From a virus (lineage: Duplodnaviria; Heunggongvirae; Uroviricota; Caudoviricetes), in the IMG/VR virus record IMGVR_UViG_3300029516_000004, positions 1 to 64,000 of that record: DNA of 64,000 nt; one strand, written 5' to 3'. Below, piece after piece: positions 1-42,115 of this stretch. Below the pieces are notes generated by a model that made no database searches, had not been told where the DNA came from, and saw only the letters and a list, made by a program, of their open reading frames with translations. Both the position numbers and the translations under genes were made by a program. The number at the start of each line of letters is the position of its first letter. The first letter of the stretch is position 1.

Positions 1-1
1 A

Positions 2-1525
2 AAACTACAGACGGCAAGAACTATCGGCGGAGTTAGCTTTGATGGTACTGCGAATATTAATTTACCTGGTGTTAACGTTGCGGGTAATCAGAATACATCC
101 GGTAACGCGGCTACAGCGACCAAGTTACAAACCGCTAGAACTATAAATGGGGTGTCGTTTGACGGTTCTAAAAACATTGAGCTAACTCCAAGGTCTATAG
201 GCACGATCAACTCAGCAACAATGTCTTTTAGTGGTGGTGCCGGATGGTTCAAGCTGGCAACTGTAACCATGCCACAGGCCAGTTCCGTGGTTTACATAAG
301 CCTGATTGGTGGTGCAGGGTATAACGTTGGCTCCCCGCGGCAAGCTGGCATATCTGAGCTGGTTCTGCGTGCAGGAAATGGGAATCCAAAAGGTATTACT
401 GGTGCATTATGGCGACGGACCTCGGTTGGATTTACTAATTTTGCATGGGTGAATACATCCGGTAATACCTATGACATTTATGTAGAAATAGGTAATTGCG
501 CCACAGGTGTTAATATCCAGTGGGATTATACAAAGAATGCAACTGTACAAATTCATACATCACCAACTTATACAGCGAATAAACCAACAGGCCTGACAGA
601 TGGAACTGTATATGTAATTTACAGTTCGCACATTAAACCGACCGCCACGGATGTCGGCGCATTACCAATAACCGGAGGGAATCTCAACGGCGGTTTAACG
701 GCTACTGGTGAGATCATTTCAAAATCGGCGAATGGTCTGCGCATTGCCTATGGCAACTATGGATTCTTTATCCGAAACGATGGTTCAAACACATACTTCA
801 TGTTGACCGATTCGGGTGACAGCCTGGGAACCTATAATAGTTTAAGACCGCTTACCATTAACAACGCCAATGGTGCTGTTTCAATCGGTAATGGTTTAAC
901 TGTTTATGGTTCTGTTGGTCTGGGTACTGCAAATGCTCTTGGTGGTAACTCTATCGTCCTTGGCGATAATGATACTGGTTTTAAACAGAATGGTGATGGC
1001 ATTCTTGATGTTTACGCTAATAGCAATAGAGTATTCCGCTTTAAGAATGATGCAGCTTTTTCTTTAAAAAAATTGCTGGTCGGAGATAGTAAAACTTTTT
1101 CATTATCAAGTGCAAACACATCCACTAAGAACGTAACCTTTAATCTATGGGGTGCCTCTACTCGTCCTGTTGTAGCTGAATTAGGTGATGATTCAGGATG
1201 GCATTTTTATAGTCAGAGAAATACTGATAACAGTATAACATTTGCTGTAAATGGTCAGGTGTCCCCCGCTAATTATGGTAATTTTGACTCGCGCTACACA
1301 TTAAAAACGGCTTGTGTGACAAGCGTAAGAATGGGATCTGCTGCCAGTTATAAACCATCAAGCAATGGTGTTTCTTGGACTCAGAATCTAGGAAGCGGAC
1401 TGGTTATGACAGGTATTATTGTTCAAGAAACAGGAAGTCATTCAGCTGACAATATCGGCGGGATTTATTATCGACCGGTTCAATATTGTATCAACGGAAC
1501 ATGGTACACAGCAGCATCAGTATAA
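2..1525 (+). CDS. Tail fibre protein (S-like), 5'-partial; frame is open to the window edge
   Basis: Frame open from nt 2 with no stop; repeated KLQTARTI(G/N)GVSFDG units; Gly/Asn/Ser/Thr-rich; followed by a tail-fibre assembly gene. Confidence 0.8.
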   Translation, partial: KLQTARTIGGVSFDGTANINLPGVNVAGNQNTSGNAATATKLQTARTINGVSFDGSKNIELTPRSIGTINSATMSFSGGAGWFKLATVTMPQASSVVYISLIGGAGYNVGSPRQAGISELVLRAGNGNPKGITGALWRRTSVGFTNFAWVNTSGNTYDIYVEIGNCATGVNIQWDYTKNATVQIHTSPTYTANKPTGLTDGTVYVIYSSHIKPTATDVGALPITGGNLNGGLTATGEIISKSANGLRIAYGNYGFFIRNDGSNTYFMLTDSGDSLGTYNSLRPLTINNANGAVSIGNGLTVYGSVGLGTANALGGNSIVLGDNDTGFKQNGDGILDVYANSNRVFRFKNDAAFSLKKLLVGDSKTFSLSSANTSTKNVTFNLWGASTRPVVAELGDDSGWHFYSQRNTDNSITFAVNGQVSPANYGNFDSRYTLKTACVTSVRMGSAASYKPSSNGVSWTQNLGSGLVMTGIIVQETGSHSADNIGGIYYRPVQYCINGTWYTAASV

Positions 1526-1535
1526 TGAGAGAGCA

Positions 1536-2055
1536 TATGAATAACTTTAAAAATTTCGCACCATATACGCCAGGCGAAGATAAAAGAGAGCTTGTTGATG
1601 CAGGAGTTTTATTCCTGTTGGATGAAAACGGTAACGACTGGTATGAATGTCAAAAGTTATTTTCGGAATGTACAAAAGTAATTGCGTATGATAGCAACAA
1701 TATCGTTGTCAGCATTACAGATGACGCCTCAACCCTTTGGCCCATAGGACTATCTGTAGCAGAAGTGGATAGTTTACCTGAAGATGTAGATATCGACGGT
1801 GGTTGGGTGTTTAGAGACAACTCTGTTGTTAAACGCATATATTCTGATACGGAGTTACAACAGCAAGCTGAATCAAAAAAGGCTGCCTTACTTTCACATG
1901 CCGAATCAGTAATTGTAACTCTTGAGCGGGCGGTTAAATTGAATATGGCAACAGATGAGGAACGAGCTAAACTGGAGGCATGGGAGCGTTATAGCGTGTT
2001 GGTTTATCGCGTAGATACAGCTAAACCAGAATGGCCAGAAGAACCGTTGTTGTGA
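1536..2055 (+). CDS. Tail fibre assembly protein (U/Tfa family)
   Basis: ATG 1536 after GAGAG; C-terminus AKLEAWERYSVLVYRVDTAKPEWPEEP is the typical Tfa signature. Confidence 0.8.
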
Positions 2056-2059
2056 AGTG

Positions 2060-2081
2060 AAGGCCCGATTTATCGGGCCTT
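2060..2081. terminator. Hairpin between convergent tfa genes
   Basis: aaggcccga-ttta-tcgggcctt inverted repeat. Confidence 0.4.
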
Positions 2082-2086
2082 AACTT

Positions 2087-2224
2087 TTAACCTAGCTCAG
2101 TAGGCCAGACGATCGCATTGAAACTGGCTTTATCTGTTATTGTGTTGAAATCTAATGCATTAACTGCATCAATATAGTCCAGCCAGGCGTCAAGAGAAGA
2201 CTGTTCATCTTCAGATAATATTCT
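2087..2224 (-). pseudogene. C-terminal remnant of alternative tail fibre assembly gene (U'-like)
   Basis: Minus-strand frame ends ...DEQSSLDAWLDYIDAVNALDFNTITDKASFNAIVWPTELG (Tfa C-terminal signature), but N-terminal part and partner fibre gene are absent. Confidence 0.5.
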
Positions 2225-2261
2225 GCCGCGTAGTAATTTTGTCTGGCTAATCACGAGCTGT

Positions 2262-2797
2262 TTAGGATTGAAAGGATGACGCCGGAAACTTCTTATAAAG
2301 CGTGGAAACAGCCACATCATAGATGATTGCAACCTGCTTACGGGGGATGCCCTTCTCCAGCAATCGCCGCATTTGCTGCCATGTTTCTTCTTGGTATTTA
2401 GGTCAACGTCCACCTATACGACCTTCTGCGCGAGCTGCATTAAGTCCAGCGCGTGTACGTTCAACGATAAGCTCACGTTCCATTTCTGCCAGCGCCCCAT
2501 TGGTGTACTGGTGTCGATGGAGTCAGTGAGACTCCGGAAGTTAATGCCTCTGTCACGCAGCTCTTCCACCAGCACAACTAAGTGACACATGCCGCGACCA
2601 AGACGGTCTAACTTCCATACGACCAGGGTATCACCTCTGGAAAGCATACGGAGTACCTTTTTTAATCCAGGGCGCTCAGCCTTTTTGCCGCTCGCCTTGT
2701 CCTCAAAAATTAGCTCACATCCTGCGCTTTCAAGAGCGTGTCGTTGTAAAGCAGTGTTTTGTTCATTTGTTGATACGCGTACATAGCCTTTTAACAT
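2262..2797 (-). pseudogene. cin: Cin/Pin/Gin-family serine DNA invertase, disrupted
   Basis: N-terminus MLKGYVRVSTNEQ...SLTDSIDTSTPMGR matches invertases; frame then shifts (expected RFFFHVMG segment missing, ALAEMERELIVERT continues in another frame) and a TGA sits in GRIGGR*PK before the C-terminal HTH QQMRRLLEKGIPRKQVAIIYDVAVSTLYKKF. Confidence 0.7.
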
Positions 2798-2922
2798 ATT
2801 TTCTGCTCACTATCGTTATTTATAGCAAGCTGCGGATTTTAATTAACAAAAACCTGTGTGTGGACATCACAAAGTGCATACCGTGCCCCAATGATGTTTT
2901 ATTGAAAAGCGGGGGTACTTTA

Positions 2923-3204
2923 ATGTTTGATTTAACAATATTTTTTATAACCATCCTTGGAGGCGTGCATTCGTTTCTGAATGGGATTCGTGAAAAACGT
3001 TACGAAGCGTCATGCAGGCAATTGATGGCCGAGTGTATTGCTGCCGTACTTGCAGGCTTTATAGGCATGTATTTCGCGGAATATAAGGGTATGGATGAAA
3101 GTCTTCAGAATTGCGTGACTATTATTTGCAGCATCAATAACAGGCTCATTCTTGAAAAGTCACAAAGGATTATCGATTCGTACCTCAATAGAAATGCCTC
3201 TTAA
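2923..3204 (+). CDS. Small hydrophobic protein, unknown function
   Basis: ORF with GGGGG RBS-like run upstream; predicted TM segment MFDLTIFFITILGG. Confidence 0.3.
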   Translation: MFDLTIFFITILGGVHSFLNGIREKRYEASCRQLMAECIAAVLAGFIGMYFAEYKGMDESLQNCVTIICSINNRLILEKSQRIIDSYLNRNAS

Positions 3205-3250
3205 GCAACAAATGACCGGTTGAGAAGTTACTTTGCATACCATTACCTCC
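3205..3250 (+). promoter_or_regulatory. Putative Lpa-dependent late promoter upstream of lydA
   Basis: AACAAATGAC ... AAGTTACTTTGCATACCAT resembles elements upstream of lyz, pacA, prt/darB and the 52522 operon. Confidence 0.35.
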
Positions 3251-3271
3251 TGACAACGTAGGAGGGAACTT

Positions 3272-3601
3272 GTGCTTGACACACAGGAATTAGCTCCAGT
3301 TGCTATTGCGTTCCTGCTTTCAGTAATTGGTGGGATAGGCACGTTCCTGATGGATGTCCGAGACGGTCGCCAGTCTGGCAATTTGTTGGGATTGGTTACG
3401 GAGATCTTTGTTGCAGTGACAGCTGGCGCGGTGGCGTACCTATTGGGGCAACACGAGGGCTGGGAGTTATCAATTACGTACTTAATGGTAACGATAGCCA
3501 GCAATAACGGTCATGAGGTGATTTCAGGGATGAAACGAGTGAATATCGATAGCATTCTGAATGTTCTTACAAGTTTGGTGAAAAAGGGAGGCGGGAAATG
3601 A
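3272..3601 (+). CDS. lydA: Holin (LydA-like)
   Basis: GTG start after GGAGGG; 109 aa with two hydrophobic segments; first gene of the dar operon as in P1. Confidence 0.55.
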   Translation: MLDTQELAPVAIAFLLSVIGGIGTFLMDVRDGRQSGNLLGLVTEIFVAVTAGAVAYLLGQHEGWELSITYLMVTIASNNGHEVISGMKRVNIDSILNVLTSLVKKGGGK

Positions 3602-4041
3602 TTGGCTGGGGTGTATGCGTTATTGCGTTAGCCTTAGCCGATCGCTATTTGCTAAAACGCAAGGACATCACGCATTTAGAACTTGGTGATGTGGAAATTA
3701 AACCGGGGTTCATCCGGGTGCCGTTCAAATACCGGTCTAAATACCCGTTTTTGCGCGGCGCAACGGTCAGATATTGGATCCGCGATGTTCAGAAGCCGAC
3801 GACAGTGATTGAAGGCGAACAACGTTGTCTGACGTCGGCTGAACAGGGCGAAAACAGTGAATGGTTGTACATACCCACTGAATATATGGGTAAAGGAGAG
3901 CGACTGTGGCATTTCAACGTCATGGTTACGCATGGCGACTCGTTCATTAACCCGTTGTATCGGATTTTCCCTGTTACTCAGCAAATCCGCAGAAGTTACG
4001 TAATAAATCTCGCACAGGATGTGTCAGATGACGAAAAATAA
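3598..4041 (+). CDS. lydB: Antiholin-like protein (LydB-like)
   Basis: 147 aa, overlaps lydA stop, GGGAGG RBS; position matches P1. Confidence 0.5.
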   Translation: MIGWGVCVIALALADRYLLKRKDITHLELGDVEIKPGFIRVPFKYRSKYPFLRGATVRYWIRDVQKPTTVIEGEQRCLTSAEQGENSEWLYIPTEYMGKGERLWHFNVMVTHGDSFINPLYRIFPVTQQIRRSYVINLAQDVSDDEK

Positions 4042-4630
4042 GTATGCAACGGTCGATTTTGACCAGGTTAATGAAAAGGGGCTGAAATCCCTTATCGCGG
4101 CGATCAATAAAACCGGTGTTACGGTAATTGAGGTTGACTCCAGCAACCGCGCAACAACGAAAGATGGCGTTAAAGTTAAAACCGCAAAGCTGGTTCTTAA
4201 CGACGGACAAATTCTTGCCATACAGGTAAACGATACTGGCGATATATCGTCTGTGAAACTGAATGGAAAAGCTATTCCTAACGCTCAGTCGCCGGATATC
4301 AAGACGCTTGGTACCGTCATGGGACAGGCGGCTCGCAAAAACTCCGCAAAATTCCAGAAATCACTGATCGCCAAAGCGAAGCGTGTTGCCAATCCGGTAG
4401 ACAAGAAACCGGCAGTTAAATCCAACTTTCAGCGCCTGCAAGAGGCAAAACAGCGGAATGCTCAGGTGGTTGCCGCTTATAAGTCCGCGCAGAATTCGGT
4501 GTCTTTCAATCAACAGCAGATCACTGATTTGCGGGCGAAGATGGATAAGGAGACGGGCCGACTCAATAACGAAAAGGCACGGAATGGCGAACTCAAACGT
4601 CGTCTTAAGCAACTGAAAGCAGGAAATTAA
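4028..4630 (+). CDS. hdf: Hdf-like protein of the darA operon
   Basis: About 200 aa, Lys-rich coiled-coil C-terminus; position immediately upstream of the 639-aa DarA candidate. Confidence 0.45.
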   Translation: MTKNKYATVDFDQVNEKGLKSLIAAINKTGVTVIEVDSSNRATTKDGVKVKTAKLVLNDGQILAIQVNDTGDISSVKLNGKAIPNAQSPDIKTLGTVMGQAARKNSAKFQKSLIAKAKRVANPVDKKPAVKSNFQRLQEAKQRNAQVVAAYKSAQNSVSFNQQQITDLRAKMDKETGRLNNEKARNGELKRRLKQLKAGN

Positions 4631-4631
4631 C

Positions 4632-6551
4632 ATGGAACAGTTCAATATCAATAAAGGGGTGACGATCAAGCCCGGGCTTGACGTGCTTCCCCCGCCAGTG
4701 ACTGATGATGAATATCGCGCATTAATGGCCGGTGAGGACCGCTATCTGATGACGGAATCCAACACCCTGGAGGAAATCGAGGCTACGTTCTTCTATGACA
4801 CGCCGATCCACTGGTGTGCTACGGATTTACTGGAGGCGATTAGTTCTACTCGTTTGCAGTTACACCGGACCATGCAGGCATTTGTCCGGGCATTGAACCA
4901 GAAGCTGAATGGTACCGGAATCTCTGCGGGGAGTGATAAAACGGGGGATGTGGCCCAGAACGGTGCACGCGCGATCGGCGGTGCTGAAATTGGCCGGGCA
5001 CGTAACGTTAACGGGCTGCCGGTCCTGCCAGCCATTATTCCGCTCAGTGATGGTCAGACTATCAGTATTCTGTTTCATAGCCCGACAGCGGAAAACCGGA
5101 TCACCAATAGTGATACGCTGGTTGCTTTCCAGTTCTTACTGAATAAAAAAGACGTTACTCATACCGTTGCTCCGATGAGTGGACGTGATATGACGCTGGC
5201 GCAGGTCACCATGAAACTTGCCAACCTTGCAGAGAAAAACTCGGCAAAATTCCAGCGTGCGCAGAAGAAGAAAAAAGCCCTGGTTGATGAAATAACCCAA
5301 CTACAGGCTGACAGTGACCAGAAAGAGGATGCCATGAGCGACCTCGCGGATCAGGTGGCAGCGGTAGAAGGGCAGAAGGCAGATCTGGAGCAGAAAATTA
5401 ACGCTGTTGCATCGGAAGCGGATTCTCTTTATGAAGAGAATGAGCGTTTGCAGGGGGAGATTGATCGGCTCAATCGCACTGGTGGGCGCGATACCATTGC
5501 CCCTGCGGGGATGACTGGTGGACACTCTCGCGCGCTGACGGATCGCCTTGCCAGTATCAAAAATCGTATGCATATGGACGGGGAAGCGACGCTCAGTAAT
5601 GGTGCATCAATGAAGCAATTCATTGGGGATGGCGAAGGGTATATCCAGTTAACCGATCCGGATGGCAGCGTATACATGATCAAGGCTAAATCCATACAGG
5701 GTGTGGACATGGCAGATGCGCTCGGCAAGCTGTTTAAAGCCTATAAAGCGGGTAATGTATCGGAATATATGGTCCAACCAGAAGAACATAAACCGGAAAA
5801 CGTCGAACCTGAACCAGCGGAAGATACCGGTAGCTCTTCGCCTGAACCAGAAGTCTCTGTAGGTGCATATCGATATGCCCTGCAAATGCGCCCGGCGGCC
5901 CCTGGCGCAATACCTGAAGGTAACAAAGCAATTCTGCCGCGCCCTGATGAGGGTGACCCGTATTATGAATATGCACGCTACGGCATTGCTACTTACGATA
6001 CCCCGCTTTCTGATCAGCAAATGAGTGCGTACGACCTGAAGTTATTGCCTCGCGAGGATTCTTTCGACTTCCTTGCGAAGACACTTACTAATGGTCCGTT
6101 TGGCAAATATGCACAAAAAGCTCTGGAGCTGGCCACCAGCTCACCAGACGAGTTCCGCGTAATGCTGAAAACTCAGTTTCAAAAAACTTTCCCCAATATT
6201 GCGTTTCCTGGTGGCGCTGGCACCGAGAAAATGGTGCAGAGCATGATCAATGCATTGCAGGCCGAAGTCGGTGAGATTACTCAGCCAGAACCGGCCCCGG
6301 CACAGCCTGATGAAACGGTTAGCGAAGCAGATGCAGAGGCTAATAAAGCCATTGAATATCTCAATAACGTGATGGATATGCAAAGCACTGACATGGCGGA
6401 GATCCGTAACGCCCGGGGCAATGTCCGGGAAGCGATTGCAGCCCTTCAGGCTGCCGGACGTTTTGAGGAAAACGAAGAGCTGGTTAATGGCGCTGCTCGC
6501 CACCTGGCTGATCTGCTGGTAGCAATCCAGAAAGCGGGGGTAGCGGCATGA
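4632..6551 (+). CDS. darA: DarA-like antirestriction capsid protein
   Basis: 639 aa, size and operon position as P1 DarA; AGGA RBS; internal coiled coil. Confidence 0.6.
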   Translation: MEQFNINKGVTIKPGLDVLPPPVTDDEYRALMAGEDRYLMTESNTLEEIEATFFYDTPIHWCATDLLEAISSTRLQLHRTMQAFVRALNQKLNGTGISAGSDKTGDVAQNGARAIGGAEIGRARNVNGLPVLPAIIPLSDGQTISILFHSPTAENRITNSDTLVAFQFLLNKKDVTHTVAPMSGRDMTLAQVTMKLANLAEKNSAKFQRAQKKKKALVDEITQLQADSDQKEDAMSDLADQVAAVEGQKADLEQKINAVASEADSLYEENERLQGEIDRLNRTGGRDTIAPAGMTGGHSRALTDRLASIKNRMHMDGEATLSNGASMKQFIGDGEGYIQLTDPDGSVYMIKAKSIQGVDMADALGKLFKAYKAGNVSEYMVQPEEHKPENVEPEPAEDTGSSSPEPEVSVGAYRYALQMRPAAPGAIPEGNKAILPRPDEGDPYYEYARYGIATYDTPLSDQQMSAYDLKLLPREDSFDFLAKTLTNGPFGKYAQKALELATSSPDEFRVMLKTQFQKTFPNIAFPGGAGTEKMVQSMINALQAEVGEITQPEPAPAQPDETVSEADAEANKAIEYLNNVMDMQSTDMAEIRNARGNVREAIAALQAAGRFEENEELVNGAARHLADLLVAIQKAGVAA

Positions 6552-6913
6552 CACTATCAGCTATTGAGTTAATGGATCTCAGCGATAAGTTGGATGCTCT
6601 GATGTCCAAAGCGGCTACCGCGAGTGGCATGGAGTTGCTGGATATCAGCGATGAAATTGACCAGATCATGCAACAGATGGGGTACGGCGCGTCCGGCGGC
6701 AGTAGTGGCGAGGAAAAACAACCTTCGGTACATGATGGTGTGCCAAAACTGGTTGCTGATTTCCTGGCTGATAAATTCGTCGATCAGAGCACTGATGCAT
6801 TTATCGGTACGTTACAGGACTTGAGTCAATATGTTGGTACATACATCGACCTGGACCAGGTTAAACAGCACACGGCGGCATGGATAGCCGCCAACATTAA
6901 AGAGGCAACATAA
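6548..6913 (+). CDS. ddrA: DdrA-like protein
   Basis: 121 aa, start overlaps darA stop (ATGA); position. Confidence 0.45.
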   Translation: MTLSAIELMDLSDKLDALMSKAATASGMELLDISDEIDQIMQQMGYGASGGSSGEEKQPSVHDGVPKLVADFLADKFVDQSTDAFIGTLQDLSQYVGTYIDLDQVKQHTAAWIAANIKEAT

Positions 6914-6925
6914 GGCGTAACAGGG

Positions 6926-9913
6926 ATGAGCTTAAGCGATCAGGTGGTAATGGCCACCAGCATAGAAACGCTGATCGAGCTGCTAAAAAACCTGCCCGAT
7001 TACGGGCGGGTTTCGTATGTGGTGACAGCGAAGGGAGACGAGGTAAAAACAGCGTTTGATATCGTCGATGCCTCAGCTCTTTTGGTATCCAATACTCTGG
7101 ACGGGAAAATTAACCCTGACTATCCCCAGGAACTTCAGCCGCGTGACCGGACCCGCGCATCCAGTCTTCTTCAGGTCAACCAGATATCCAAGGATTTGCG
7201 TCCTGCCCAGCTTACCGATTCCGGTTTATCCAGCCATGGCGCGCCGATAATTGGTGAGGACAATGCCGTTGAGTCAGGTAATGGACGGACCATGGGGATC
7301 ATCAAAGCCTATCAGGACGGCAATGCGGATCGGTATCGTGAGTACCTGATTGATCATGCGACAGAATTCGGCATACGACCTGAAAAGGTTGAATCAATGG
7401 CGGCTCCGGTACTGGTGCGCCGCCGGTTAACGAAGGTTGACCGTGTTCAGTTTGCCAAGGACTCAAATATTTCTGATCTCCAGGAAATGGCAGCCAGTGA
7501 AAAGGCTTTTGTTGATGCCGACAGCATAACACCGGCGATGATGGCGTTGTTTAACCCGTCAGAAAGCGGAGATCTGCTTAGCCGCAGTAATGACGCGTTT
7601 ATTCGCGGATTCATGACGCAAGTTGGTGCCACACAGGCTGCTGGCCTTGTAACGGAAGATGGGCGACCAACACGGCAACTTGTAGACCGTATACAAAACG
7701 CGATCTTTGCCAAGGCATATAAGGATGCGCGCCTGGTAAGGATGGTTGCAGAAGAACCTGATCCGGATATGCGTAATGTTCTGACGGCACTTAATGCGGC
7801 AGCCAATGATTTTGTCCAGATGCAGGCTTTATCAGGAGAAGCGCACAAGCAGGCTGTGACAACTATTGTTGATGGCATTGAGACAGCGGATAGCCTCGAT
7901 AAAAAGGCGCTGGCGGCATTGAAAGATGCGGTAGACCTGGTAAGGCAATCGAAGGAGTCAGGCCAGCATATTACCGATGTTATTGCTCAGGGGGATATGT
8001 TCAGCGAAACGGCCCCGGAAGTGAAAGCACTCGCGTTGTTCATCGTCGCGAATAACCGTAGTGCGAAGCGTATGGCCACCGCCTTTAAGTTGATGGCGCA
8101 ACGTATCAATGATGAGTTACAGCACCAGGGCCAGGCGCTCGGGGATATGTTTGGCGGCGGCGATGTGTCGTTACAGGATATCCTTCGCCAGGTGTCTCAG
8201 GAACTGGAAAACGAAGGTATGCAAGGGATATCCAGCGGTCTTTTCGAGTCAGCTTCCGGCGGTAGTTACAACGGTGTTGCTCCATATACCAGCTTGCTAT
8301 TACATCGGGCATCCGGCATCAAAGACATTATTCATCTGATCAGGCTGCTATCCCGCACCGATCGCCAGGATGAGCAGCTTGTACAAGTGCTTGCGCATTT
8401 TGTCCGAATGCCTGTTGCCGACGTGAAAAAATGGTGCCGATTATTCGGTATCAGCAATTCGTTACTTCGCGGATTGTTAAATCACGCATCCTCCCTTGGG
8501 CGCGATGGCTTTGATGAGATAGCGCAGGCGATACAAAACGGAGATATGCCACCAGCTATTGACTGGTTTTCCATTCGCCCAACCAGGGTGAAAGCATTCC
8601 TTAGCGCGGCGCAATCAGCATCACCATTGGCAGAAATGGTTCAGAGGTTGTCGCTCATATTCACAGATCATACCGCGTTGGGTGATCTGACTCTTGACGA
8701 GATGAAAGAAGCCTCCATTCAGTGGGCCGATCAACAAAATGAGGTTAACTCAGACTTCTTGCCAGCATTCAGGAAGGCCGTTAGTAAAGCGGATGATGCC
8801 CGTGGAATTCTGAAGGCATTTAAGGCATTGCAAAGTCGGGTTAATAAACATGTCGGTGATATCGATGGGGTAACGGCGGAAGGCAGGGATATCCTTAAAG
8901 AGCACGGCATAACGCCAGAGTTTATTGATGAGATCAGGACGGATATGCAGCGTGAGGTCGTATCGTCCCTGCAAATTGTAGCCAGAGCGTTGGCGGATGC
9001 TAATCCGAAGAGTGCGGCCATTGTTAACCGGGTTATTGGTGATATTGAAGCATCGGAGGGCATGGGGGCGCTGAAACTCTTCCTTTCGCGAGCGTTTAAT
9101 CCTAACGGCAATATTCTCCCTGGCATTATTGGTGAGGCTAAAAAGTATGTCAGTGAAGAAGAACTTGAGCAGCTTGACCAACTACTTAAGCGATTCTCAT
9201 ATAACCCGCAGACACGCTGGCAAATGAATCAGCGAAGTATGGGTTCGGTCCACGAGAAAGTGTTATCTGCCATGAACAGTGCGATCGCAAACTCATCCGT
9301 ATCTGAAGAAAAAGCTCTTGAGTGGGCCGACTCTTTTATCACGGAAGAAGTGGAAGAAGCCCGCGCTGGACAGAATGGTGGGATAGACCTGCGCAAGGAA
9401 CTTGCTGATATTTATCGCCTGACCGGCGGGAAAATATCGACCTTATCAAAGGTGGTTCACCACCAGGGAAGGGCATATGCAAATCTAAATGGTGTTGTTG
9501 CTGTCAATTTGAACGATAAAAATGCAAGTGCACTGTGGCACGAGCTGGGTCATCATCTTGAGTACAGTAACCCTGGTTTGTTAGAGAAAGCCCGGTCATT
9601 CCTGAAGGCCAATGTTGAAGGGGATAAGCCATCATTCGTCAATATCGGTGGGCGTGGCAAGCCTGAATGGTGCTTCAGATCTCGATTGAGTAATATTTAT
9701 ATGGCGAAGGTATACCCGCCAGCCTCAGTGAGTAATTCCGGGAAAATTCGGCAGAAATCACCGACTATTTCCAAAACGTCAGCAACGGAAGTATTCTCTA
9801 TGGCTCTTCAGTTGTATCATGACAAAGAGGCCGCTGCCGCATCACTGATGAATGGTGACGGATTGCTGGAACTGTTATTAGGTGTGGCAAAGGAGCTAAA
9901 TAATGCAGATTAA
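6926..9913 (+). CDS. ddrB: DdrB-like protein
   Basis: 995 aa ORF following ddrA; size and position as P1 DdrB. Confidence 0.55.
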   Translation: MSLSDQVVMATSIETLIELLKNLPDYGRVSYVVTAKGDEVKTAFDIVDASALLVSNTLDGKINPDYPQELQPRDRTRASSLLQVNQISKDLRPAQLTDSGLSSHGAPIIGEDNAVESGNGRTMGIIKAYQDGNADRYREYLIDHATEFGIRPEKVESMAAPVLVRRRLTKVDRVQFAKDSNISDLQEMAASEKAFVDADSITPAMMALFNPSESGDLLSRSNDAFIRGFMTQVGATQAAGLVTEDGRPTRQLVDRIQNAIFAKAYKDARLVRMVAEEPDPDMRNVLTALNAAANDFVQMQALSGEAHKQAVTTIVDGIETADSLDKKALAALKDAVDLVRQSKESGQHITDVIAQGDMFSETAPEVKALALFIVANNRSAKRMATAFKLMAQRINDELQHQGQALGDMFGGGDVSLQDILRQVSQELENEGMQGISSGLFESASGGSYNGVAPYTSLLLHRASGIKDIIHLIRLLSRTDRQDEQLVQVLAHFVRMPVADVKKWCRLFGISNSLLRGLLNHASSLGRDGFDEIAQAIQNGDMPPAIDWFSIRPTRVKAFLSAAQSASPLAEMVQRLSLIFTDHTALGDLTLDEMKEASIQWADQQNEVNSDFLPAFRKAVSKADDARGILKAFKALQSRVNKHVGDIDGVTAEGRDILKEHGITPEFIDEIRTDMQREVVSSLQIVARALADANPKSAAIVNRVIGDIEASEGMGALKLFLSRAFNPNGNILPGIIGEAKKYVSEEELEQLDQLLKRFSYNPQTRWQMNQRSMGSVHEKVLSAMNSAIANSSVSEEKALEWADSFITEEVEEARAGQNGGIDLRKELADIYRLTGGKISTLSKVVHHQGRAYANLNGVVAVNLNDKNASALWHELGHHLEYSNPGLLEKARSFLKANVEGDKPSFVNIGGRGKPEWCFRSRLSNIYMAKVYPPASVSNSGKIRQKSPTISKTSATEVFSMALQLYHDKEAAAASLMNGDGLLELLLGVAKELNNAD

Positions 9914-40901: not shown

Positions 40902-42115
40902 GCGAGTTGAGTTATCTGGAAAAATTGATGGATGGGGTTGAAGTTGAGTGGTTGCCACTCTCAAAAGTATTCAACTTAAGGAATGGTTATACACCGTCTA
41001 AAACTAAAAAAGAATTTTGGGCGAATGGTGATATACCTTGGTTCAGAATGGATGACATACGTGAAAATGGTAGAATTCTAGGGAGTTCACTTCAAAAAAT
41101 TTCATCCTGCGCCGTAAAAGGGGGGAAACTATTTCCTGAAAATTCAATATTAATATCAACGTCGGCAACAATTGGTGAGCATGCTTTAATCACTGTACCT
41201 CATCTAGCCAATCAAAGGTTTACATGTTTGGCTTTAAAAGAGTCTTATGCTGATTGCTTTGATATTAAATTTTTATTTTACTACTGTTTTTCTTTAGCTG
41301 AGTGGTGCCGAAAAAACACAACGATGTCCAGTTTTGCGTCTGTTGATATGGATGGATTCAAAAAATTTTTAATCCCTCGCCCCTGCCCGGATAATCCGGA
41401 AAAATCCCTTGCCATCCAGTCTGAAATCGTGCGAATTCTGGACAAATTCAGCGCCCTTACTGCAGAGCTTACTGCAGAGCTTACTGCAGAGCTTAGCATG
41501 CGTAAAAAACAATACAACTACTATCGCGACCAGTTGTTGAGTTTTAAAGAGGATGAGGTTGAGGGTAAGAGGAAAACCTTAGGGGAAATTATGAAGATGC
41601 GTGCCGGACAACATATTTCGGCTCATAATATAATTGAAAGAAAAGAAGAGAGTTATATATATCCTTGTTTTGGAGGAAATGGCATACGGGGTTACGTCAA
41701 AGAAAAAAGTCATGATGGAGAACATCTATTAATAGGGCGACAAGGAGCATTGTGTGGTAATGTTCAAAGAATGAAAGGCCAGTTCTATGCTACAGAACAT
41801 GCTGTTGTAGTTTCAGTCATGCCCGGGATTAACATTGACTGGGCATTTCATATGTTAACGGCAATGAATCTAAACCAATATGCTTCAAAATCGGCACAAC
41901 CGGGACTTGCTGTAGGGAAATTACAGGAATTGAAATTATTTGTCCCTTCAATAGAGAGACAAATATATATTGCCGCAATACTCGATAAATTCGACACTCT
42001 GACCAACTCCATCACCGAAGGTCTCCCGCGTGAAATCGAGTTACGCCAGAAACAGTACGAATATTATCGAGATATGCTATTTAGTTTCCTGAAGCCGGAA
42101 GTAGCAGAGGCATGA
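40898..42115 (+). CDS. hsdS: Type IC specificity subunit HsdS
   Basis: Two AT-rich variable domains separated by conserved central region with three TAEL repeats; conserved C-terminal [20 protein letters not shown]. Confidence 0.85.
41456..41491 (+). repeat. 3 x 12-bp in-frame tandem repeat (cttactgcagag) in hsdS central region
   Basis: Encodes [13 protein letters not shown]. Confidence 0.8.

Follow-up and report, generated by a model that had tools for sequence, protein, structure and literature searches.

The window, a 64,000-nt stretch of DNA comprising positions 1 to 64,000 of the IMG/VR virus record IMGVR_UViG_3300029516_000004, carries at 2060-2800 what is very probably (roughly 92%, in our estimate) a relic, in a P1-like phage-plasmid, of a tail-fibre switch operated by a Cin-type serine invertase. 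In phages P1 and Mu, such a switch consists of an invertase that acts together with Fis and an enhancer to invert the segment between inverted 26-bp sites. According to the explanation that we propose, intact relatives would have one such site (cix) inside the fibre gene S, the other overlapping the cin stop codon, and the enhancer in the 5' part of cin, and inversion would exchange the 3' end of S together with the matching assembly gene (Sv-U versus Sv'-U'). In the window the system would have been broken in cis by a 1,114-bp deletion at a GTT microhomology, which would have removed Sv' entirely, the greater part of U' and, from one cix, the core together with the inner half, so that only orphan cix sites in S remained. 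It would have been broken in trans by a 25-bp slipped-repeat deletion that shifts the cin frame after R102 and by a stop at R140, a 127-aa stub of the catalytic domain being the only product that could still be made. The outcome would be a fibre permanently composed of S (with a mosaic Sv) and U, a single frozen configuration of what was probably a multi-site system, and a distantly related backbone would also have acquired the module together with the distal fibre. We infer the loss of switching in vivo from the lesions, from their identity across assemblies and from the lack, in the window, of an alternative cassette and of a partner site.

The window is P1-like phage-plasmid DNA of the IncY type. 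Comparison with the P1 annotation indicated that its gene order (Table 1) is the P1 order around cin and the C segment, and megablast gave 97-98% identity between the region and many P1-like E. coli plasmids of the IncY type. Window positions 1-8797 are 100% identical to two further contigs, a 95-kb human-gut metagenome contig (L004) and a contig of assembly GCA_030473505.1 (L007). The best intact comparator was NZ_CP062890.1 (L001), which encodes U (170 aa), U' (181 aa), Sv' (233 aa) and a recombinase of 186 aa with the same amino-acid sequence as P1 Cin. The hairpin between the convergent U and U' is probably a bidirectional terminator; it was not called by the consensus terminator scan because it has no T-run. 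On the other side of the invertase frame, window positions 2850-2950 (from the spacer between cin and lydC into the start of lydC) contain indels and many substitutions relative to both NZ_CP062890.1 and P1, with flanks that are >97% identical. The LydC-like products were given as 93 or 109 aa by gene callers and vary among members of the lineage.

Table 1. Features of the tail-fibre and invertase region, in window coordinates
Feature	Position	Strand	Details
Tail-fibre gene S, distal part	1..1525	+	ORF starts upstream of the window; Gp34_trimer Pfam match; the only fibre tip that is left
Intact 26-bp site inside S (cixB), now orphan	768..793	+	TTATCCGAAACG-AT-GGTTCAAACACA; from a pattern scan built from the sites of P1 and relatives
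U, full-length tail-fibre assembly gene	1537..2055	+	172 aa; Caudo_TAP E=5e-29 over the whole profile
Hairpin between convergent U and U' (probable terminator)	2055..2086	.	15-bp stem, AAGTGAAGGCCCGAT..ATCGGGCCTTAACTT; inverted repeat, kept in NZ_CP062890.1
U' remnant (tfa-like tail)	2087..2259	-	Last ~57 codons and stop of the alternate tail-fibre assembly gene; aligned to NZ_CP062890.1 3685-3856
Deletion junction	2260..2262	.	GTT microhomology; P1 homology begins exactly at 2260
Surviving outer half of the cin-adjacent cix	2260..2272	.	(G)GTTTAGGATTG; overlaps the cin stop codon; compared with annotated P1 cixL and the NZ_CP062890.1 site
cin pseudogene (serine DNA invertase)	2262..2797	-	536 nt versus 561 nt intact; aligned to the cin genes of P1 and NZ_CP062890.1
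In-frame TGA replacing R140 (CGG)	2403..2405	-	Two substitutions, C418T and G420A, relative to both P1 and NZ_CP062890.1
25-bp deletion site	between 2490 and 2491	-	Retained repeat copy AGCGCCCC at 2491-2498
Putative recombinational enhancer (sis) homologue	2708..2779	-	P1 annotates sis at cin nt 19-90; one substitution in 72 nt (A58C)
Promoter-like site TCCACA-17-TAAAAT	2836..2868	-	Coincides with the annotated P1cin promoter of P1; consensus match only
lydC, lydA, lydB, hdf, darA, in this order after the invertase frame		+	

The decisive lesion, which was absent from an earlier note on this DNA, is the loss of half of the cin-adjacent cix. The intact site reads TGTGCTTGAACC-AT-GGTTTAGGATTG and the window version ...AATCACGAGCT/GTTTAGGATTG, which lacks the first G as well as the core dinucleotide and the whole inner half. 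The invertases Cin, Gin, Hin and Pin are interchangeable and complement one another in trans. Loss of the core and the inner half therefore locks the switch by itself, even with Cin, Gin or Pin supplied in trans. The cix inventory of the window thus stands at one complete site and one outer half-site, with no inverted pair of the kind that relatives have. The invertible segment of NZ_CP062890.1 is flanked by a 134-nt, 95% inverted repeat whose ends are marked by the counterpart of the complete site and by the cin-adjacent site. The identical contig L004 has a second site, cixA, of the P1 cixR type, which lies 1,428 nt upstream in S and in direct orientation. The S-side site differs by two mismatches from the core pattern AAACCNNGGTTT and was found only with a pattern derived from the sites of relatives. 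With AAACCNNGGTTT itself and at most one mismatch (<=1), the window gave four matches versus 2.3 expected, which is chance level. A stretch at 41026-41051, TGGTGATATACCTTGGTTCAGAATGG, has a core like that of cixA (ATACCTTGGTT) and poor outer half-sites (~6-7 of 12), and such matches likewise occur at chance level.

The sites of intact relatives bear on the form of the ancestral switch. Plasmid pMTY2330_IncY (L011; NZ_CP128959.1, 21000-34000) has four cix-type sites, at ~4030-4055, 5395-5420, 7985-8010 (minus strand) and 9824-9849 of that locus. They comprise cixA (core TT) and cixB (core AT) in S, an inverted cixB', and cixL beside cin. As a set they would imply two nested invertible segments, with two middle parts and two tips to combine, in a Min-like arrangement. 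The cin-adjacent site of NZ_CP062890.1 (4957-4982) is a hybrid with an outer cixL half (CAATCCTAAACC), the core AT and an inner cixB half (GGTTCAAGCACA). Such a hybrid would be the expected leftover of a site-specific deletion between cixL and cixB' in direct orientation in an ancestor resembling pMTY2330_IncY, and the cixA of NZ_CP062890.1 would then have become an orphan. Intact relatives vary in orientation, with the inner segment of pMTY2330_IncY running opposite to that of NZ_CP062890.1. The ancestral switch was probably multi-site and similar to p15B Min, rather than a two-site P1 C segment.

Nucleotide alignment to NZ_CP062890.1 located the deletion in cis, the window being without positions ~3857-4971 of that plasmid, a loss of 1,114 bp. 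The lost DNA held ~124 N-terminal codons of U' and the whole of Sv'; it also included the inner half of the cin-adjacent cix, together with its core. The deletion junction abuts the stop codon of cin (2262-2264) and is displaced by 1-4 nt from the crossover dinucleotide in the direction of cin, and the deletion presumably arose through microhomology. Precise recombination by Cin between cix and a quasi-cix site in U' was considered as a source of the junction and rejected, with the junction 1-4 nt off the core and one G missing. The U' flank, GCTAATCACGAG/TT/GTTGACGTGCGT, is moreover unlike a cix half-site.

What is left of U' was identified in two ways. Using tblastn, residues 124-181 of the 181-residue U' align to window 2263-2090 at 96.6%, and the remnant matches positions 94-128 of the 131 in the Caudo_TAP (PF02413) profile. 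The earlier note had put the surviving part at ~45 codons; both searches bear out the remnant, and its length is corrected to ~57 codons. It lacks its own start codon and promoter and falls short of a full-length Tfa (~170-180 aa). The note had also held that the alternate Sv' is missing, and tblastn over the 64-kb window indeed gave none. Queries with Sv', U' and Cin from three relatives found no other copy of Sv', of U'/tfa or of an invertase in the 64 kb, and on this empty result we rejected the idea that a further cassette or invertase is hidden in another part of the window.

A 77-aa ORF at window 2087-2320 (minus strand) is listed in RefSeq as a 'tail fiber assembly protein' (WP_106474621.1) and is a chimera across the junction. 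It begins out of frame in the 3' end of cin and crosses the deletion junction into the U' tail. The entry is most likely an annotation artefact.

For the invertase itself, the ORF list and an alignment with Cin placed the frame on the minus strand at 2262-2797, just where the earlier note had it. Outside the lesions, this frame is 97.9% identical in nucleotide sequence to P1 cin. The note had further described a frameshift at the conserved RFFFHVMG block and an in-frame TGA, and both are there. In coding sense the intact gene reads CCA ATG GGG CGC [TTT TTC TTT CAC GTA ATG GGG GCG C]TG GCA, and the bracketed 25 bp are missing from the window, so that F103-G109 (FFFHVMG) plus 4 nt are lost relative to both P1 and NZ_CP062890.1. 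The deleted block is bounded by the near-identical repeats ATGGGGCGC and ATGGGGGCGC (coding sense), and judging by these flanking repeats the deletion was presumably a slipped-strand event. Frame 0 consequently encodes Cin residues 1-102 followed by 25 unrelated residues (..TPMGR/WQKWNV..) up to a stop at 2414, giving an ORF of 127 aa (2414-2797). The downstream frame reads ALAEMERE...GRIGGR*PKYQ..., with the TGA at the position of R140.

Pfam searches divided the locus accordingly. The first fragment (2414-2797) matches positions 3-111 of the Resolvase profile (PF00239) with E=1.9e-33, and the second matches positions 119-144 together with the complete HTH_7; positions 112-118 are missing. 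The serine motif GYVRVSTNEQ, of the YxRVST type, is present. Taken as sequence evidence, the Resolvase match and the serine motif show family descent, not function. At the cin locus no uninterrupted ORF links the catalytic domain, helix E and HTH_7, the last being found only in a separate frame fragment. By homology with the structures of gamma-delta resolvase and Gin, we take the deleted block to be the start of helix E and the R140 stop to fall in the arm that precedes the DNA-binding domain. Cin aligns with the crystallised Gin sequence 3UJ3 from end to end and residue for residue (E=9e-89). The 127-aa stub, without helix E and the DNA-binding domain, is expected to be inactive. Rescue by frameshifting or readthrough was rejected as well, since eight helix-E residues are physically deleted and the window has no partner site. 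On the identical sequence in plasmid pCR-0543_3, the RefSeq/PGAP label is 'recombinase family protein; frameshifted; internal stop'. To judge by the promoter-like site, transcription of the pseudogene probably continues; with this site and the enhancer homologue surviving, the useless stub may therefore still be made.

The lesions are not confined to one record. All three (the junction, the 25-bp deletion and the TGA) are identical in 16 of the 16 lineage loci that were fetched, and window 2056-2734 is invariant among the aligned lineage loci. Differences elsewhere are patchy, which indicates recombination. Exact-protein look-ups returned the 127-aa Cin stub ORF from 43 contigs (59 index blocks) and the 77-aa junction-spanning ORF from 63 contigs (126 index blocks), and the named sources of both are E. 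coli and Shigella flexneri. It was these look-ups that revealed the lineage, not the 24-mer scans: the exact junction 24-mer was absent from the species-representative genomes (one per species) and from IMG/VR contigs. The junction was likewise not found in any PLSDB plasmid. Within 5,426 complete E. coli genomes, a query running from the junction to the frameshift was covered only by pCR-0543_3 (NZ_JBSWAS010000004.1; urine, Houston), with 100% identity. According to the gene tables, the arrangement of S, U and the U' remnant is the same in 17 of the 17 junction-bearing loci (the 16 above and L017, described below), and both orientations were thus not seen. The dead switch is a real, inherited state of single origin that circulates on P1-like plasmids of E. 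coli and Shigella.

The cin allele of this lineage bears a signature of decay. Relative to both P1 and NZ_CP062890.1, it has 11 derived substitutions, of which 7 are nonsynonymous (I3K, N20H, S69G, R71C, D128N and the two that create the TGA) and 4 synonymous. The cin alleles of P1 and NZ_CP062890.1 differ from each other at 7 positions, all synonymous (0 nonsynonymous), and encode the same protein. The nonsynonymous excess of the window allele (7:4 versus 0:7; Fisher one-sided p=0.010) points to relaxed constraint on cin in the dead lineage. In a search with the N-terminal 307 nt of cin, none of 443 PLSDB plasmids exceeded 97.7% identity, and the changes are therefore private to this lineage.

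A further locus, L017 (GCA_048157505.1; JBKIAQ010000005.1, 2499-3059), has the identical junction beside an uninterrupted cin that encodes wild-type Cin. The deletion is thus the common denominator, and the cin lesions mark a subset. No inverted partner cix site was present in the inspected 6 kb of this locus. Its cin carries synonymous variants of the NZ_CP062890.1 type at positions where the dead allele has those of the P1 type, and L017 may be either an ancestor-like intermediate or a recombinant. As proof that the deletion came first it was rejected, since its cin is a different allele.

In a second group of loci (pCR-0543_3, which is L003, at 1302-6679, and L015, L016 and L019), the module of distal S, U, U' remnant and dead cin sits on a distant P1-like backbone. 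Relative to the window, DarA, Hdf and the LydB-like protein of this backbone are only 38%, 40% and 35% identical, and nucleotide similarity is limited to a single 67%-identical stretch. Homology of the module to the window extends from inside S to approximately cin nt 63-132, and one recombination joint falls within the enhancer region at the 5' end of cin. The group has an additional 1-nt deletion at cin nt 35. The presence of the module on a backbone with a 38%-identical DarA indicates an exchange of the distal fibre module in which the dead invertase was carried along.

The expressed fibre was also examined. The window U is 99.4% identical to the U of NZ_CP062890.1 and has 57% amino-acid identity to the U of P1. 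Window 770-1330 matches the Sv' of NZ_CP062890.1 at 95% in reverse orientation, and 1265-1497 matches its Sv at 97%. Judged by these alignments, the expressed Sv is a mosaic in which part of the 'alternate' fibre persists within the expressed gene. The two matches overlap over a 67-nt internal inverted repeat that Sv and Sv' of NZ_CP062890.1 have in common, and the mosaic suggests an earlier homologous inversion within the invertible segment.

The dead-switch lineage contains short (1157 and 1177 aa) and long (1557-1606 aa) forms of S. The window has the short form, which is 1177 aa in the gene table of L004. Between the 1177- and 1606-aa forms there is a difference of 1,287 nt, bounded on the two sides by direct copies of a ~245-bp repeat that contains cixB (window 650-894; L003 at 3389 and 4676; L006). 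A variant base at ~788 suggests homologous recombination between the length forms, with a crossover point downstream of the cix core. With the inverted cix pair and the cassette gone and cin broken, the claim of the earlier note that the phage would be fixed in one host-range state is supported at the level of the fibre; an effect on host range would require that the element still makes virions.

The reading of 2060-2800 as a switch relic has to be weighed against others. Short-read assemblers can lose 25 bp between short repeats or collapse an inverted-repeat region, and the lesions might accordingly be sequencing or assembly artefacts of one record, the real plasmid having an intact switch. 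This we discount almost entirely. The lesions are not assembly errors, because they are identical in 16 independently assembled contigs from varied projects and assemblers (ENA gut metagenomes, NCBI GCA assemblies, Logan assemblies of SRA data and the circular RefSeq plasmid), and the cin allele bears lineage-specific missense changes in addition. The doubt about assembly raised in the earlier note, for which resequencing had been suggested, is answered by the NCBI, ENA and Logan assemblies and the complete RefSeq plasmid, which have the same lesions in the same orientation. It is also very improbable that the switch still works through the invertase of another prophage (Pin or a Gin-like enzyme) acting in trans on leftover cix sites. 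The exchangeability of these enzymes, the retained enhancer homologue and the several cix sites in S of relatives would allow it, but cixB and cixA (~1.4 kb further upstream in L004) both lie in S in direct orientation, the cin-adjacent site is without its core and inner half, other matches to the cix core are at the chance level given above, and the 64 kb contain no alternative cassette to switch to.

Two other questions concern how the relic came about and why it spread. Cleavage by Cin at cix, followed by microhomology joining to a break in U', would explain why the right endpoint of the 1.1-kb deletion is 1-4 nt from the cix core dinucleotide, a position that is rare for a random endpoint, and relatives do show clean cix x cix products such as the cixL/cixB hybrid of NZ_CP062890.1. 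We nevertheless consider this origin rather unlikely. The junction is off the core, the GG expected of the half-site is down to one G, and the U' side is unlike any cix or quasi-cix site. Fis- and enhancer-dependent invertases strongly disfavour deletion, a 3-bp microhomology fits generic illegitimate recombination, and the argument from closeness is post hoc. An endpoint within 4 nt of the crossover could be a hint of a Cin-initiated break; a generic microhomology deletion fits equally well. As for the spread, locking of the fibre may have been positively selected, for instance by a single useful receptor type in a human-associated E. coli/Shigella niche. The locked module is on at least 63 contigs and was transferred, with the dead cin, to the backbone with a 38%-identical DarA. 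A dead gene hitch-hiking beside a useful fibre tip would give the same pattern, however, a plasmid lineage can spread clonally without the switch being under selection, and switch decay also occurs in P1-like plasmids that are simply degenerating (PMC6906374). Selection is on balance unlikely, if the least so of these alternatives. A scenario that combines the two, with a Cin break at cix and microhomology repair followed by an advantage of the one fibre, spread across backbones and later decay of cin, is doubtful and less probable than either element alone. The switch relic with its lesions in cis and in trans remains the preferred reading.

The relic was compared with known systems. It shares with the P1 C-segment system the order and orientation of S, U, U', cix and a cin that reads toward the segment, followed by lydC-lydA-lydB-hdf-darA, as well as the overlap of cix with the cin stop codon; a putative homologue of the P1 enhancer lies at the same place, cin nt 19-90. 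Unlike P1, it has two breaks in cin, only half of the cin-side cix, no Sv' and no more than ~57 codons of U'. Its fibre tip and U also differ from their P1 counterparts, and the S-side cix has the core AT in place of the TT of P1. Sandmeier, Iida and Arber are said to have described the Min multiple-inversion system of p15B in 1990-1992. As in p15B Min, pMTY2330_IncY and NZ_CP062890.1, several crossover sites in the fibre gene and nested or combinatorial inversions are features of the system from which the relic would derive; the window keeps the same cixB as pMTY2330_IncY, and its identical contig L004 keeps cixA. Unlike p15B Min and pMTY2330_IncY, the window is without any inverted partner site, and nothing can invert. 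The Gin/G segment of Mu, the Pin/P segment of e14 and Hin of Salmonella (Din family) have the same logic of 26-bp sites, Fis and an enhancer, but these are working switches whereas the window has a pseudogene and a single orphan site. Among P1-like plasmids, pSvP1, pTZ20_1P and pJIE250-3 have a truncated or altered invertase and an incomplete C segment (Venturini et al. 2019, PMC6906374), which the same authors interpret as a lost tail-tip switch and a narrowed host range (PMC6906374). Those plasmids have mostly IS-mediated rearrangements and a wider loss of phage genes (PMC6906374), whereas the window has a small, clean haplotype of three lesions in a region that is otherwise collinear with P1. 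Surveys of P1-like plasmids have described lydC-cin-Sv'-U'-U-S as a hypervariable region (PMC9603915).

Decay of cin and the C segment in P1-like plasmids is thus of a kind already known and biologically ordinary, and the gene is already a RefSeq pseudogene. The additions made here are the loss of the cix half-site, the ~57-codon remnant, the mosaic Sv and the recognition of an inherited, circulating haplotype. The chimeric 77-aa 'tail fiber assembly protein' is flagged as a probable annotation artefact. Beyond bookkeeping, the result as a whole is of little consequence. The locus offers a clean natural case of function being lost after its use was lost, with the site and the cassette gone and cin showing excess missense changes, a frameshift and a stop. 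P1-like elements of this sort often carry resistance genes, and a recognisable E. coli/Shigella P1-like lineage with a permanently locked fibre is relevant to the prediction of host range and transduction.
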